A program made the position numbers and the translations under genes. Below, piece after piece: positions 5,748 to 12,610 of a stretch of DNA of 15,464 nucleotides; position 1 is the first letter of the stretch; each line of letters opens with the position of its first letter. This stretch comes from Nitrospinota bacterium. GTDB taxonomy: Bacteria > UBA8248. The stretch lies in NCBI GenBank assembly GCA_030754595.1, contig JASLZZ010000053.1, positions 1-15,464 of the forward strand, in the 5' to 3' direction. Under the pieces are notes generated by a model. The model had not been told where the DNA came from. It ran no database searches and saw only the letters and a list, made by a program, of their open reading frames with translations.

Positions 5748-6125
5748 CTATTCCTCGGTGGGGGTATCTTCCTCTCCGTACTTCTTGCCGCCCTCCCAGT
5801 CCTTGAGCGACCACCAGAGGTAGAGAATTCCGCCCAGGATGGCGGTCATTACTACCGCGAAACCGACGAGAAGATAAAACGACAGCCCGCCGCGGTAGGC
5901 CTGCCCGGCGCCTGGCCGGAGGGCGGTTTCGCCGGAGGGCTGGAGGGATTCACCGACGGAAGGCCGGTGAGCGGGAGCGGAAGAAGCTGCCCTCTCCGCC
6001 ATAATTGCTTGCTCGGCTTCGAACTTCGTGTAGCCGTAGTAGATCAGCGCGCTGATCGCGGCGACGATCAACATCGTGCAGATGGGCCACTTGAGCCCGA
6101 CACCGGTTTCTTTCTCCCCGCTCAT
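5748..6125 (-). CDS. Hypothetical 125-aa membrane protein, two predicted TM helices
   Basis: ATG at 6125 overlaps the LLM stop (ATGA). Hydrophobic segments are WPICTMLIVAAISALIYYGY and LSFYLLVGFAVVMTAILGGILYLWWSL, with an acidic C-tail. Confidence 0.7.
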   Translation of the reverse strand: MSGEKETGVGLKWPICTMLIVAAISALIYYGYTKFEAEQAIMAERAASSAPAHRPSVGESLQPSGETALRPGAGQAYRGGLSFYLLVGFAVVMTAILGGILYLWWSLKDWEGGKKYGEEDTPTEE

Positions 6126-7081
6126 TTTCTTACCTTTGGGATAATTTCCTCCGCCAGCAGGGTCATCTGATCCATGTCCGACTCCGGCGCGCCCACCGGC
6201 CGGAGGATGAAGTGTGACGCCCCGGCCTCGGTGAACGCTTCGAGTTGTTCGGCGCAACGGGCCGGCGGCCCGTGAATCAGGTACTTTTCGGCGATGCCCT
6301 CGAAATTCATGTTGTAGCGCCGTGTGAGGTATCCCGTCCCGGTTTTGAGGGCGCGATCCTCATCGTCATCAATGTAGATAAAGGCATGGTGCGCCGCTGT
6401 CCACCCGCCACCTGAAATCGGAAGCTCACGCCTCGCCTTTTCGGCCATTTCTTGGATTTGTTTCATTCCATCGGCGAACCGTTTGGCGGTGAACAGATAG
6501 GACACGTATCCGTCGCCCAGCAGGGCGGCGCGCTTCCGGGCGGCGTCGCTCCGCCCGCCGATCCAGATGGGCGGGCCGCCCGGAGTGGCGGGCGGCGGGC
6601 TCTGTATGGTCTCTTCGAACGACCAAAACCGGCCTTCATGGCAGATCGGTTTTCCGCTCCAGAGCTTTCGGATGATTTCGATAGCCTCGTCGGTCCGCGC
6701 GCCGCGCTCTTTTAGCGAAACGCCGCAGAGATCGAATTCCTCCTTTCCCTCCCCGCCGACTCCGACTCCGAAAACGAATCGGTCCCCGCCCGAGAGAAAA
6801 TCCACCGTCGCTGCGGTCTTGGCGGCGACTCCGGGGGTGCGCAGGGGGAGAAGGTAGACCGAGGTTCCGATGGTGAGGCGGGTGGTGCGCGCTGCGAAGG
6901 CCGCCAGCGTCGTCAGGCTCTCGGTAAAGTGGCCGCCGTGGAAGGCGATGTGATCCCCGATCCAGAGCGAATCGAACCCGAGGGCCTCGACGGCCTCGGC
7001 GGTGGAAAACATCGCCTCCGGCGGAGAGGGGCGGTCGGGGTGCATCCCCCAAGTGATTCCAAACCGGATGGGTGGCGCCAT
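6122..7081 (-). CDS. LLM-class (luciferase-like) flavin/F420-dependent oxidoreductase
   Basis: LGFDSLWIGDH, LAAFAARTTRLTIGTSV, GVGVGG..EEF, RGARTDEAI and PPIWIGG motifs. AAGGA RBS. Confidence 0.93.
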   Translation of the reverse strand: MAPPIRFGITWGMHPDRPSPPEAMFSTAEAVEALGFDSLWIGDHIAFHGGHFTESLTTLAAFAARTTRLTIGTSVYLLPLRTPGVAAKTAATVDFLSGGDRFVFGVGVGGEGKEEFDLCGVSLKERGARTDEAIEIIRKLWSGKPICHEGRFWSFEETIQSPPPATPGGPPIWIGGRSDAARKRAALLGDGYVSYLFTAKRFADGMKQIQEMAEKARRELPISGGGWTAAHHAFIYIDDDEDRALKTGTGYLTRRYNMNFEGIAEKYLIHGPPARCAEQLEAFTEAGASHFILRPVGAPESDMDQMTLLAEEIIPKVRK

Positions 7082-7172
7082 TATTAGTCCTTTTCGTTTG
7101 GCCGCGTGCGGGAATCTGGCCTATTCGCTCCTGGCGGTGAACCCGGCCGCCGGGATTTTACCACGCCGGTTG

Positions 7173-7200
7173 ATTATCGGATCCTCGGTCCTAGCTGCAA
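7173..7200 (-). promoter_or_regulatory. Possible sigma70 promoter for the LLM gene
   Basis: TTGCAG-N16-GATAAT on the minus strand. Confidence 0.35.
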
Positions 7201-7307
7201 TTTTCAACCAAGGGTCCTTCCTGTGCGTCAAGAAAGCTGGTTCCGGGCGTCAGCCAGCCCCCCGGATTTGAGAGATCCTCGATTGGCCGTGCCGGGCGGA
7301 TCGCATG

Positions 7308-7320
7308 TAAGTCATTGTAA
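7308..7320. promoter_or_regulatory. IHF-like site upstream of the sigma54 promoter
   Basis: TAAGTCATTGTAA compared with the consensus YAANNNNTTGATW, in an AT-rich patch about 55-67 nt upstream of the predicted start site. Confidence 0.4.
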
Positions 7321-7348
7321 ACAAATCGAATGTAATTTTTTGATGATT

Positions 7349-7363
7349 TGGCACCGATCATGC
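7349..7363 (+). promoter_or_regulatory. sigma54 (-24/-12) promoter
   Basis: TGGCACCGATCATGC: GG(7350-51)-N10-GC(7362-63) with TGGCAC intact, compared with the consensus TGGCACG-N4-TTGC. Confidence 0.7.
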
Positions 7364-7420
7364 CCTACCAGGGTTAGGTAGATGCGGAATCTTGTAGAAC
7401 AACCCTCGGGAGAGTGAATA

Positions 7421-7675
7421 ATGGTTGAAACCCGCATGGATGTGATGATTTCCAGGCTTACGGCCCAATCGCAACCCATTAGCAATCGCCCGAGGCAGAC
7501 CGCCAGCGAACAGGTTGTCCAGGCGCGGCCTGCCGAGGGCGCCCGATCCGTCGAGACCGATATCGCCAGAATCTTCGCCAAACAGGCGTTTCAGGCGACC
7601 TCCTCCACGGGGACCAAGCCCGCCGCATCCCCCAAAGAGGAGCCGCGCGGAGGTCATCTGGACATTCTCACCTAG
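7421..7675 (+). CDS. Hypothetical 84-aa low-complexity protein ending RGGHLDILT (YjfB/FlaG-like C-terminal motif)
   Basis: GGGAGAG RBS, located just downstream of the sigma54 promoter, with a C-terminal Gxxh(D/N)hxh-type motif. Confidence 0.75.
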   Translation: MVETRMDVMISRLTAQSQPISNRPRQTASEQVVQARPAEGARSVETDIARIFAKQAFQATSSTGTKPAASPKEEPRGGHLDILT

Positions 7676-7793
7676 TTTTTTCGCGGCATCCCCCACCGCA
7701 TCGCCGGTAATTGGCCGGTGACAGGCGGAATATGCTAATCTCCCCTTGTGGCCGGGTGGTTTCCGGCCGCGCTTCCGGGGGAGGATTAGCCAG

Positions 7794-8045
7794 ATGATCG
7801 ATGCAGTCGGATCCGTTTTGCCGCCCGCCTTGCGGCCCAAGCTCACCGCGCCTCCCGAGACGCCTCCGGCACAGTTCCAGGTTATCAGCAAGGTTTCTCA
7901 AATTGACGTGGCCAGCCAGCGCGCGGCAAGTATTCTCTCCCGAATCAGCTCCCCGCAAGAAGAATAAAAACCACCACCGGTCTCTGGCGACGATTACCCA
8001 AAGGTCGAAGTCTCCAGGGGCAAGGCGGTAAACGTCACGACCTGA
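7794..8045 (+). pseudogene. Second small protein (83 codons) ending RGKAVNVTT, interrupted by an in-frame TAA at 7965-7967
   Basis: GGAGG RBS and ATG at 7794: MIDAVGSVLP...SSPQEE*KPPPVSGDDYPKVEVSRGKAVNVTT* (TGA 8043-8045). The post-stop segment is in frame and ends in the same motif as the upstream protein. Confidence 0.7.
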
Positions 8046-8213
8046 CTCACCCCGCGTTTATATCCTTTCGATTCGCCTCACAGGTTTCACTTGAACGAAA
8101 GTTCCGTGTAGTCTCTTGCCGTCTGCGGGGGGACTGATATTTGAAAATGTCCCTGCCGATTAAAAATAGAGCGCTTCCCGTGTGCGGGGAACGCCGTACC
8201 GAAGGAGCATCAG

Positions 8214-9521
8214 ATGGTCGATATCCGGCCCTTTCGCGGGCTGCGCCACGCCGGAATTTCTCCCGATAAAATTGGGGATATGACTTCGCCTCCCTACGAC
8301 GTTTTCTCTCCTGAGTTGCGGAGCGCCTACCTTGAGCGCCATCCGCATAATGTTGTTCGCCTCATTCTAGGCGAAATTCTGGACGGCGAGGCGGATGATT
8401 CCGGGCGAATTGGCCGCGCCGTGGGCTATATGACCGACTGGCGGCGGGAGGGGATTCTCGCCGCCGACGAGAAACCCGCCCTTTACCCCTACCGTCAGAT
8501 ATTCTCGTTGCCGGATGGAACAAGGCTCGAACGGCGGGCGTTTTTTACTTCTGTCCGGCTCGAAAAGTACGGCGAGGGCAAGATTTTTCCGCACGAGCAA
8601 ACTTTCGCCAAGACGAAAGGATTTTTGTTCGATCTCTATAGCGGATGTGGAGCGCACTTCGGCCCCATCTTTTCTTTTTACGACGATCCCGAGGACGGCG
8701 CGACAATAGCCCTTGCCGCTTCAATGGAGGGCGCGCCGATCGCCGATTTCGAGGAAGAGGACGTGCGCCACACGCTCTGGCGATGCGAGGACCCATCAGC
8801 CATCGAGGCCGCTCAAAAAGCGCTGGCCGACAGGGAGGCTTTTATCGCGGACGGGCATCACCGATACGAAACTTCCCTGAATATCCAGGAGGCCGCCCGG
8901 AAAAATGGCGTGAATAATAACGATGAGGTGGACTGCACGCTTATGTGTCTGGCGAATGTGTCGGATCCCGGAATGGTTGTCTTGCCCACTCACCGGCTAT
9001 TGAAAATAATCGGCTCGCCGGTTGAGGCCGCGCTCGCGTCCCTGGAGGGAGCTTACGAAGTGACCGAAGAGCCTGCGCCGGCGGAGGGCGAAGGCGAGGC
9101 GGTGGCTAAGCGCCTTCGAGAGCTGGGGAGCGGGGGACGCACGGCGTTTTGCTTTTTCTCCGGTGAAGGTCCTCTGCGTTACCTTGTCAGAAAAGAGAAC
9201 CCCCAGACGGATGCCGGCGATATCGCCGAGACTATCGCTTCCCTCGATGTCAGCCGTCTTCATGCCGATGTCGTGGACAGCGCCCTCGCGGCCTCGCACG
9301 ATGAAGCCGACATCGCCTTCACGCCCGATCCCGAGGCAGCTGTTGCCGCTGCGCGCTCGGGTGAGTGCGCGGTTTCTTTGCTGCTCAACCCGACTCCGAT
9401 CCAGTCGGTGGTGAAAATCGCCAAGGCCGGCGGCAAGATGCCCCACAAGTCCACCTACTTTTTTCCGAAACTCAGGACCGGCCTGGTCTTCCACGCCTTC
9501 GCGCCCCCCGCGATGGATTGA
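8214..9521 (+). CDS. DUF1015 family protein (ParB/sulfiredoxin-like fold)
   Basis: IRPFRGLR, SPPYDV, IFPHEQT, FIADGHHRYET, VLPTHRL and MPHKSTYFFPK motifs. AAGGAG RBS. Confidence 0.92.
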   Translation: MVDIRPFRGLRHAGISPDKIGDMTSPPYDVFSPELRSAYLERHPHNVVRLILGEILDGEADDSGRIGRAVGYMTDWRREGILAADEKPALYPYRQIFSLPDGTRLERRAFFTSVRLEKYGEGKIFPHEQTFAKTKGFLFDLYSGCGAHFGPIFSFYDDPEDGATIALAASMEGAPIADFEEEDVRHTLWRCEDPSAIEAAQKALADREAFIADGHHRYETSLNIQEAARKNGVNNNDEVDCTLMCLANVSDPGMVVLPTHRLLKIIGSPVEAALASLEGAYEVTEEPAPAEGEGEAVAKRLRELGSGGRTAFCFFSGEGPLRYLVRKENPQTDAGDIAETIASLDVSRLHADVVDSALAASHDEADIAFTPDPEAAVAAARSGECAVSLLLNPTPIQSVVKIAKAGGKMPHKSTYFFPKLRTGLVFHAFAPPAMD

Positions 9522-11306: not shown

Positions 11307-11369
11307 ATTCAACAAGTTACGATGACATCGAAACCGCCCTGCTTGCCTTGGTGCCCATATAGGCGTCCA
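11307..11369 (-). promoter_or_regulatory. Putative att-arm region: integrase arm-type direct repeats plus IHF-like site
   Basis: Minus strand TGGACGCCTA-TA-TGGGCACCAA (11348-11369) at the integrase 3' end. ATTCAACAAGTTA (11307-11319) has one mismatch to WATCAANNNNTTR. Confidence 0.5.
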
Positions 11370-12261
11370 AAAGCTGGACTGTGGACGCTTTATTGTCGGC
11401 GCTAAGGTGGGAATATCGGAGGGTCATTTTGATGTCTTTGTGCCCGAGCAACTCCCTCACGGTGACTAAATCACCCCCCGCCATGACCAAACGGGATGCG
11501 AAGGTATGCCACAGGTCGTGGAAGCGGAAATCATCGATCTGAGCGTCCTCCAGGGCTTTCTGGAACCCCTTCCTAACGTCAATTAGATGCTCGCCAGTCC
11601 TCCCCGGAAAGACGAATACCGAACCGAACCGCCGGGGTATCCCATTGAGGGTCGTCCTGAGGGTTTCGTTCATGGAAATTTCCCGGCTCTCTCCATTTTT
11701 GGAATCAACCACCCGAACAACCCCATTTTGAAAATCCACTTCTTTCCATTTCAAACGAAATATCTCACCGCGCCGCATCCTCGTGTTCAATGCCACCTGT
11801 ATGAGTGAGTAGAGGGTCCCCCCCGCCGCCCCAAAGAGCCTTTCGCTCTCCTCGTCAGTTAAATAGCGGCATCTTCTGTCCTCAACGTGAAGGTTGCGAA
11901 AATGCTGAACGGGATTTTCCGTCGCTAAACCCCACTCAATGGCCTTAGTAAACATGCCGCGCAGGACAGCCATTTCCCGGTTAACTGTGCCGGACTTGCA
12001 GGTGCCGGACCGCTCCTGGGCGAGAGCATCAACTTTTAACGGAGTGATCTCACTTGTGCGGATGCTTCCAAAATACTTCTCGAATTGTCGGACTCGGTAT
12101 TCATCACTCTTTACTCCTCGGTGTTGTGCTTTGGCCCATTCCAGATAGAGGCGAGCCAACTTGGGAAAGGTGCATATGGGTTGTGTTTTTTTGTCCAGAA
12201 ACTTGTTTTCGGCGATCTCAACCTTTCGCTTAGCCAGCGTATCAGAGGCTACTTTCTTCAT
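11317..12261 (-). pseudogene. Phage-type tyrosine recombinase/integrase, 5'-truncated and with catalytic-motif substitutions
   Basis: TVNRE, NTRMRRGE (usual TGxRxxE, G->R), DSKNG, FHDLWHT (usual HDLRH, R->W, codon TGG 11509-11511), LGHKDIKMTLRY. Integrase-like sequence ends near 12270, and the ORF-track extension to 12549 is antisense to other remnants. Confidence 0.85.
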
Positions 12262-12272
12262 GGCCTTTGTGA

Positions 12273-12422
12273 GCGGCCCGCCGAGCCTCCGGTCCGGAAC
12301 CCGACGCCGTGACGGCATCGAAACCGGCCTATTTGCTGAACAGTATCGGTCGCTCCCTCGAGGCTTACGAGATCGAGCGCCGCATCGCGGCCCTAGAGGA
12401 GCGCCAGGAGGTGAAACGATGA
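12273..12422 (+). pseudogene. 3' remnant of a phage/satellite-type small helical protein (terminase-small-subunit-like tail)
   Basis: Manual translation ...DAVTASKPAYLLNSIGRSLEAYEIERRIAALEERQEVKR*. The E-x-R-I-A-A-L-E tail overlaps the next ATG (ATGA). Confidence 0.5.
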
Positions 12423-12610
12423 AAAACCTCAAAAAGCGCATCACGCGGCTCGAAGCGGCCACGAAGGTTCCATCGGGCGAATGGCTTGAACCGGAGGAAG
12501 ACGAAACCACTGGAGCATACATGCTGCGCCTCCTTGACACGGGGCTCACCTTCGAAGAGATCTTGTCCGGCCCCCCCCGAGGAAGAAGAGACGGACGATG
12601 GTCCCATTGA
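12419..12610 (+). CDS. Small phage/satellite-type hypothetical protein (63 aa)
   Basis: Strong AGGAGGTG RBS, ATGA coupling, and an MKNLKKRITRLE N-terminus typical of small mobile-element genes. Confidence 0.6.
   Translation: MKNLKKRITRLEAATKVPSGEWLEPEEDETTGAYMLRLLDTGLTFEEILSGPPRGRRDGRWSH

Follow-up and report, generated by a model that had tools for sequence, protein, structure and literature searches.

The two small open reading frames ORF1 and ORF2, which follow one another in a 15,464-nucleotide window of DNA from a Nitrospinota bacterium (assembly GCA_030754595.1, contig JASLZZ010000053.1), appear to belong to a lineage-specific set of small proteins that have a C-terminal tail in common. 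It is our tentative reading, to which as a whole we give somewhat less than an even chance, that this set is part of the flagellar regulon in related bacteria and has been left as relics in this one. The window is the complete contig C53 of a 3.55-Mb metagenome-assembled genome (MAG; 138 contigs, completeness 96.9%, contamination 6.4%), which is called G000 here; other genomes carry G numbers as well, genera are denoted g2 to g9, and the survey of the phylum comprised 51 Nitrospinota genomes. A preliminary description of the region had proposed a tandem of two intact genes behind one sigma-54 promoter with an integration host factor (IHF) site, coding for disordered proteins with a terminal docking strand that are possibly exported by the flagellar type III system or regulate it. 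This interpretation is partly supported: it was right in spirit, and it was wrong on the integrity of ORF2, on the single operon, and on a present-day flagellar role in G000. The families are new; as a kind, accessory flagellar proteins like FlaG are known. The features on which the argument is built are the following, with positions in the window:

7308-7317, plus strand: short upstream element TAAGTCATTG
7333-7345, minus strand: IHF-like site
7349-7364, plus strand: sigma-54 promoter TGGCAC-N5-ATGC, with GG at 7350-7351, GC at 7362-7363, and a predicted start near 7375
7421-7675, plus strand: ORF1, 84 aa; its N-terminus and its C-terminal tail are conserved, with an amphipathic helix at the centre and a Pro/Ser/Ala linker behind it
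7733-7741, plus strand: extended -10-like element TGcTAATCT, candidate own promoter of ORF2
7734-7790, plus strand: strong hairpin, the 5' arm of which (CUCCCC) pairs with the ORF2 Shine-Dalgarno sequence GGGGGAGG at 7777-7784
7794-7967, plus strand: ORF2 as it stands, 57 codons followed by an in-frame TAA at 7965-7967 (codon 58), giving a 57-aa product by translation table 11
7968-8045, plus strand: what was once the C-terminal end of ORF2, 25 codons that include the tail motif, behind the stop, in a frame that is open to the ancestral TGA at 8043-8045

Judged by its substitutions, ORF1 is a real gene under purifying selection. The ratio of nonsynonymous to synonymous change (dN/dS, Nei-Gojobori) is 0.11-0.32 in the five deeper pairs for ORF1 and 0.18-0.42 in ten pairs for ORF2, and both frames are therefore protein-coding and selectively constrained. 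The closest and youngest pair gives 0.82 for ORF1 (4 synonymous and 10 nonsynonymous changes), which, on an estimate from just 14 changes, shows an apparently relaxed constraint on the youngest branch. The 84 codons and the clear ribosome-binding site of the preliminary description are confirmed, the latter being GGGAGAG at 7408-7414, six bases 5' of the ATG. The DNA of the whole gap in which the two genes lie is matched in all four other genomes of the genus, at 92, 82, 69, and 65% identity, and found no match in the 36 more distant genomes to which the search was extended. All four congeners keep ORF1, the G002 copy with a one-base deletion near the 3' end; as the product of this deletion recurs in a public three-member protein cluster, an assembly error is unlikely. 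Family members share a core of an acidic residue, a helix of the form ARIFA(K/R)xA(F/M)Q, a linker of 15-20 residues, and the tail, and the N-terminus varies between genera. An AlphaFold2 model based on the family alignment has a mean predicted local distance difference test (pLDDT) score of 61 and contains a single helix at residues 44-58, so that proteins of the ORF1 type are predicted to be mostly disordered, which agrees with the earlier view of unannotated disordered proteins. In Pfam and NCBIfam, no meaningful match to the family proteins came up at E up to 10, and in Pfam there was none at all for 14 of them. An exhaustive profile search of 1.84 billion representatives returned 13 matches, 11 of which are credible and two of which, long repeat proteins, were discounted; word-based searches gave 19, 15, and 32 matches, the few with organism names being Nitrospinota or 'Tectomicrobia' MAGs and one just 'bacterium'. 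In a protein atlas, all clusters that scored at least 0.9 are unnamed, and the named families at 0.84-0.89 are leads only. Within the phylum, a diverse profile (E up to 0.05) places the ORF1 family in 14 of the 51 genomes and in six genera, after two of 16 raw matches, both from g8, had been dropped for internal stops and a missing tail.

Like the gene itself, its promoter is conserved well beyond the genus. The 3.55-Mb genome, both strands included, has only 8 strict matches to TGGCA[CT]-N5-[TA]TGC[ATC], of which the -24/-12 element is one, and in an alignment of all five genus genomes the -24 and -12 elements are invariant and the flanks vary. An equivalent element stands 5' of the ORF1 homologues at six of seven further loci when searched by pattern, the seventh reading CGGCAC-N5-GTGC. 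The element was found also upstream of the divergent g7 homologue and at locus L036, and outside the genus the promoter recurs in g6, g9, g3, g5, and g7, which makes six Nitrospinaceae genera in all. The sigma factor that such a promoter requires is present, with rpoN on contig C50, and the genome has three full bacterial enhancer-binding proteins (bEBPs) and a weaker fourth. The IHF-like site fared less well: with one mismatch it fits WATCAANNNNTTR, which we take to be the consensus, but its columns vary among the five genus genomes in the same promoter alignment. The short element TAAGTCATTG is conserved in the genus, an identical 10-mer lies 5' of the g6 homologue, and it is possibly an activator or bending site. 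A genome-wide scan for a sigma-54 regulon with a loose pattern was abandoned, as it yielded largely intragenic noise. Elsewhere in G000, on contig C109 (L045), a good sigma-54 promoter (TGGCACATGAATTGCC) lies 5' of a universal-stress-protein gene, with a LonB-like protease gene and a bEBP nearby, and the arrangement of these loci makes a local RpoN regulon likely.

The shared C-terminus is the feature that links ORF1 with ORF2, and it proved to be wider than the preliminary description had claimed for the two proteins. The motif, R-G-x-x-h-(D/N)-h-x-(A/T/V)-COOH (h, hydrophobic), is conserved in both families; hydrophobic residues alternate at positions -4, -2, and 0, an invariant Arg-Gly precedes them, the penultimate residue is variable, and the free carboxylate follows. 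It is the pattern expected of a strand joining a sheet at its edge. When the profiles of ORF1, ORF2, and c41b, one of the further tail proteins described below, are compared by hhalign, only the last 9-12 columns align. A six-frame scan of the genome for the motif at the end of a frame found 7 cases where 2.5 were expected, and 6 versus 0.58 among frames of at least 50 aa; these 6 include ORF1 and one probably spurious match inside a 638-aa ORF on the opposite strand, and the remaining ones are located in intergenic gaps. At least five more small or low-complexity ORFs of G000 end with the tail, and several tail proteins begin with Met-(Val/Ile)-(Asp/Glu). The further loci are, by contig:

C41:3749-5565 (L015): three-gene cluster of a 126-aa ORF, c41a, and c41b, all three of which end in the tail
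C50:50194-50373, minus strand: uncalled 60-aa tail ORF with a good ribosome-binding site, the tail being kept in G002 at 47% overall identity
C20:4136-4351, plus strand: uncalled 72-aa tail ORF with a good ribosome-binding site, found only in the closest relative

The cluster on C41 is conserved in all five genus genomes and consists there of an acidic low-complexity c41a of about 240-270 aa and a c41b of about 80-90 aa, together with the third ORF. The c41a/c41b tandem with its tails occurs also in g9, g3, and g2, and in g5 c41b was found alone, at the end of a contig; c41b has credible matches in 11 of the 51 genomes, which belong to the same genera as those of ORF1. In G000, c41a is broken by an in-frame TAG at C41:4732-4734; the corresponding codon of the closest relative is CAG. 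Upstream of this cluster, three genus genomes have a sigma-28-like sequence, TAAAGTTC-N11-GACGTTAA, of which a fourth keeps the -10 part.

ORF2 is likewise a broken gene in this genome. It had been described as an 83-codon frame (7794-8045), which is not open and had been read through the TAA at codon 58. The aligned codon is GAA in two congeners, near-identical strains also have GAA there, and ORF2 is intact (80-87 aa) in all four congeners. The 57-aa product is recorded on 15 contigs from several archives, and near-identical intact 83-aa forms are found on 1-4 contigs each; two metatranscriptome contigs cross the TAA with no difference, and eleven DNA runs from six studies, flagged as possible sources, contain all sampled words of the stretch. 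As the short form is found on many contigs and as runs and RNA contigs agree with it, the TAA is a common natural allele and not an assembly error. The two sides of the stop have evolved in different ways: the head of ORF2 has a dN/dS of 0.09-0.14 in the two closest pairs, which is a strong constraint, and the part behind the stop has a dN of 0.127 and a dS of 0.143 against the closest relative, which are about equal. Codon 70 (8001-8003), behind the stop, is Lys where the relatives seen have Glu. The ORF2 family is limited to the genus (5 of 51 genomes), and in g6 there is no ORF2 between ORF1 and the DUF1015 gene.

That one sigma-54 promoter drives both genes, as had been proposed, is doubtful. 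The extended -10 pattern TGnTAAnnT between them is kept in all five genus genomes, including one in which its pairing partner in the hairpin is unconserved, and four RNA-library contigs from three studies cover only 7748-8003 and neither ORF1 nor any of 7000-7747, with starts at 7748, 7755, 7763, and 7824, it being understood that these are assembled contigs from four metatranscriptome runs and that contigs prove neither starts nor absence. Because of the conserved -10 element and the starts of the RNA contigs, an own promoter of ORF2 is likelier than a single sigma-54 operon, and ORF2 probably has such a promoter. The hairpin that overlaps it is strong (the fold of 7690-7795 has -57.4 kcal/mol, z -3.77, and 0 of 200 shuffles were as stable), and it is possible that it serves as a translational control element or as a stabiliser of the 5' end.

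The connection with flagella comes from the distribution of the ORF1 family. In the 51 genomes, flagellin occurs in 15, FlhA in 9, and FlgM in 14; flagellin is present in 13 of the 14 genomes with ORF1, and among the 36 flagellin-negative genomes ORF1 was found once, in a frameshifted state. This exception, G014 (L063 on C62, upstream of DUF1015), has ORF1 split over two frames, the invariant Arg replaced by Gln, and a weakened promoter, with TGGTAC...TGCG in place of the -24/-12 element. In the non-flagellate genera the family is absent, with 0 of 23 g8 genomes and 0 of 4 g4 genomes; in one genome of each, the oxidoreductase and DUF1015 genes that flank ORF1 elsewhere are adjacent, separated by a gap of 150-195 bases without ORF1, and in a second g8 genome a different gene lies upstream at the corresponding locus. 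The flagellate G012 has a large flagellar cluster (C37, L041-L043) in which good sigma-54 promoters occur, TGGCACATCTCTTGCT ahead of a rod gene being one of them, and in which fliF has a bEBP gene next to it, and the flagellar genes of flagellate Nitrospinaceae thus appear to be RpoN-dependent. G004 has a complete FliF and G001 a fragment of it, and G003, G006, and the closed genome G010 have none. Although FlhA is missing from G001, G003, G006, and G010, these four retain FlgM, a short flagellin, and an intact ORF1, a gene set which is a late-flagellar remnant without the machine.

In G000 itself, little of a flagellum is left. The FHIPEP profile for FlhA found 0 matches, a tblastn search with 12 G012 proteins turned up a FlgE-like locus and bEBP paralogues and nothing else, in particular no match for FlhA, FlhB, FliF, FliJ, FliK, FlgI, or FlaG, and the genome has no FlgM and no FliA over the cut-off. 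The two remaining genes are:

C72:5063-6259 (L038): orphan FlgE-like gene with an in-frame TAG, among metabolic genes
C43:18698-19486 (L017:6699-7487): orphan flagellin gene, 263 aa, alone among metabolic genes, with neither a sigma-54 nor a sigma-28 pattern in its upstream region

As there is no flagellar type III export apparatus, flagellar export or its regulation cannot be the present function of the tail genes in G000. What stands of the flagellar link that had been suggested is thus the distribution, the sigma-54 promoters of the flagellar operons in G012, and the agreement of the tail with the register of the FlaG C-terminus; a present role in this genome does not stand.

Taken together, ORF1 and ORF2 would be part of a Nitrospinaceae set of small disordered proteins that are united by a C-terminal motif and not by overall homology. 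In flagellate relatives this set would be in the flagellar regulon, ORF1 being expressed from a sigma-54 promoter like flagellar operons and the second cluster, that of C41, from behind the sigma-28-like promoter; such a membership we consider moderately probable. The alternating hydrophobic tail would be a docking beta-strand on the FlhA ring, for which FlaG is the nearest precedent, and the tail proteins could act as modulators that dock at the gate, as minor secreted substrates, or as both. Docking on FlhA is proposed because of the strand pattern of the tail, the precedent of FlaG, and the presence of the same strand in the FlhA of G012, and it is nevertheless a doubtful part of the model. 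G000 has lost the flagellar apparatus, sigma-28, and FlgM, and the tail genes would have been left there as relics: ORF1 intact but with constraint relaxed on the youngest branch, ORF2 and c41a with premature stops. Whether relics is the right word for them in G000 we regard as evenly balanced.

FlaG of C. jejuni, a regulator of filament length, is reported to be a secreted protein that is co-expressed from sigma-54 and sigma-28 promoters, and in an AlphaFold 3 model its C-terminal six residues form a strand against residues 431-439 of FlhA, IRIRDNLRL; with paired substitutions at this site the filaments are longer, and co-immunoprecipitation tends to be reduced (PMC11536152). The equivalent strand of G012 FlhA is LHIRDNLQL at 403-411. 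Like the tail proteins, FlaG (PF03646) is small, has a flexible N-terminal part, and has an extreme C-terminus that is proposed to add as a beta-strand to FlhA, and in FlaG of G012 the residues at -7, -4, -3, and 0 are G, L, D, and V, which is the register of the tail. In contrast to FlaG, the tail proteins are predicted to lack its folded domain, they are not encoded beside fliD, fliS, or flagellin genes, and they persist without FlhA. YjfB (PF14070) is another small flagellum-associated protein. In YjfB the C-terminus presumably is a similar G-x-x-h-D-h-x-h tail. It differs from ORF1 in that the promoter of ORF1 is of the sigma-54 and not of the sigma-28 type, and in that the loci of the family lie outside flagellar clusters, with oxidoreductase and DUF1015 genes as neighbours; YjfB has been described as an uncharacterised protein of sigma-28/FapA flagellar sub-modules (PMC11607428). 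FlgM (PF04316), the secreted anti-sigma-28 factor, is like them a small disordered protein (about 85-100 aa) that is tied to the flagellar hierarchy. That ORF1 substitutes for FlgM was considered and rejected, because canonical FlgM coexists with it in relatives: 10 of the 14 genomes that have FlgM also carry ORF1. Encapsulin cargo, which would use a C-terminal loading peptide, was rejected too, as PF04454 gave 0 matches at E up to 0.1 and the genome has no family-1 shell gene.

A number of points weigh against a flagellar origin of the set and its relic status. FlhA is present in only 7 of the 14 ORF1-positive genomes and missing from the other 7, and the closed genome G010 lacks both FlhA and FliF, yet has an intact ORF1 with a good promoter; what the docking model chiefly fails to explain is that the family survives without FlhA, and this supports a rival in which the tail has another partner. 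Conversely, ORF1 was not found in two flagellate genomes, G005 and G026, and no family locus lies within a flagellar gene cluster. The co-distribution with flagella may be due to shared ancestry alone: a DUF1015 tree of 12 sequences leaves the genera unresolved, with 6 of 9 inner branches open, and because of this, independent losses are not countable. The constrained head of ORF2 and its presence in RNA libraries fit a working gene better than a relic, and disruptions in MAGs can be assembly errors. As to the comparison with known proteins, no homology to FlaG was detected (no Pfam match; hhalign of the ORF1 profile against G012 FlaG gave a probability of 0.1% and did not align the tails), the FlaG tail has Ser at -8 and Glu at -2 where the tail motif has Arg and a hydrophobic residue, PF14070 (gathering score 27 bits) had no match at E up to 10 in six of the proteins, in G000, or in the 51 phylum genomes, and the FlgM profile had none in the family proteins. 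The model of the FlaG strand on FlhA is itself a prediction that is backed by genetics, and the sigma-28-like sequence upstream of the C41 cluster was called with what we take to be the consensus.

The explanation that draws most on these points is a clade-specific family that has nothing to do with flagella, in which the tail would be a docking or turnover signal (for example an AAA+ degron or a PDZ/TPR ligand) and ORF1 a sigma-54-dependent regulator of a stress or nutrient response. It is a serious possibility, although we would not bet on it. Survival without FlhA, and in G010 also without FliF, would be expected in this case, the loci lie among housekeeping genes in conserved synteny, the constrained head of ORF2 is found in RNA libraries of three studies, and the three full bEBPs that G000 retains are unrelated to flagellar clusters. 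The end of the tail, hydrophobic-x-Ala, is also like that of the tag of the G000 transfer-messenger RNA (tmRNA), which, as only this tag was compared, is a weak argument for a ClpX-type degron; an invariant Arg-Gly at 5-6 residues before the hydrophobic end and a variable penultimate residue fit strand addition better than a degron of the LAA type. A family without any link to flagella should moreover not be missing from all 27 genomes of g8 and g4, though the locus exists in at least one genome of each, its sole copy in a flagellin-negative genome should not be frameshifted, and two of its members should not be broken in just the genome that lost most of its flagellar genes. It is very improbable, on the other hand, that the tail proteins are true homologues of FlaG or YjfB that have diverged below profile detection: G012 FlaG does have a start similar to Met-(Val/Ile)-(Asp/Glu) and the register of the tail, and there are leads in the atlas, all below 0.9, to the spirochaete TP_0700 family (ORF1, c41a) and to a Campylobacter family of flagellar-dependent secreted proteins (c41a), but the profile comparisons were negative for either protein, the folded domain of FlaG is lacking, and in relatives canonical FlaG and FlgM are found together with the family. 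The likeness to YjfB and FlaG that had been noted is thus not supported as homology.

Two further explanations concern the genes rather than their partner, and neither has much to recommend it. If the TAA of ORF2 were read through or recoded, a full 83-aa protein would still be made in G000; the downstream frame is indeed open to the ancestral stop with its tail intact, and the allele is common and found in RNA libraries. TAA followed by A is an efficient stop, however, and with dN about equal to dS behind it, a change from Glu to Lys at a conserved site, other young nonsense alleles in G000, and GAA in near-identical strains, readthrough is hardly credible. We give equally little credence to a non-coding region that is conserved for its RNA elements. 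Such an explanation would account for the very stable hairpin and for RNA contigs that are short and restricted to the region of ORF2, but in both frames synonymous change exceeds nonsynonymous change across the genus, frames, starts, and ribosome-binding sites are kept at 65-69% DNA identity, and Rfam gave no family match in the ORF1/ORF2 region at E up to 1.

A bolder form of this flagellar reading is that the tail motif is the mark of a hitherto overlooked class of proteins, all docking on the flagellar export gate as FlaG is proposed to do, with at least six unrelated small disordered proteins of one lineage sharing the code, and that in several genomes part of the set has persisted after the machine was lost, as have FlgM and an orphan short flagellin. 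In this general form it is quite unlikely, and the survival of the set after the loss of the machine hints at a second role other than motility. If the tail were a general code for docking on the FlhA ring, it would extend a mechanism that has been proposed so far for one protein, FlaG, and would provide a simple sequence rule by which gate modulators or minor secreted substrates could be found in uncultured bacteria. The Nitrospinaceae are in any case a natural series of flagellate, recently de-flagellated, and long non-flagellate bacteria in which the fate of accessory genes can be traced gene by gene, and annotation gains several small genes that were uncalled or unnamed, one of which has a common nonsense allele in this abundant marine nitrite oxidiser.

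The remaining features of the neighbourhood are few. ORF1 and ORF2 occupy a 1.13-kb gap between the oxidoreductase and DUF1015 genes, where an overlapping 177-aa ORF on the minus strand is explicable by G+C content alone, and no tRNAs were found in the window. The flanks and the end of the region are:

6122-7081, minus strand: gene of a luciferase-like oxidoreductase, one flank of the gap
8112-8141, plus strand: terminator-like hairpin between ORF2 and the DUF1015 gene, followed by a T-rich tail and found by a pattern scan, the fold alone being not significant
8214-9521, plus strand: DUF1015 gene, the other flank of the gap, along with the gene of an EngB-type GTPase

Inside the DUF1015 coding sequence, at 8409-8465 on the plus strand, there is a sub-threshold match to the Acido-1 RNA (26.6 bits, where the gathering score is 50; E 0.15), which is probably due to chance. 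Further downstream, a gene of a tyrosine recombinase of the phage integrase family (11317-12549, minus strand) adjoins a region of lower G+C content at about 11400-12200, and it may mark the boundary of a mobile element.

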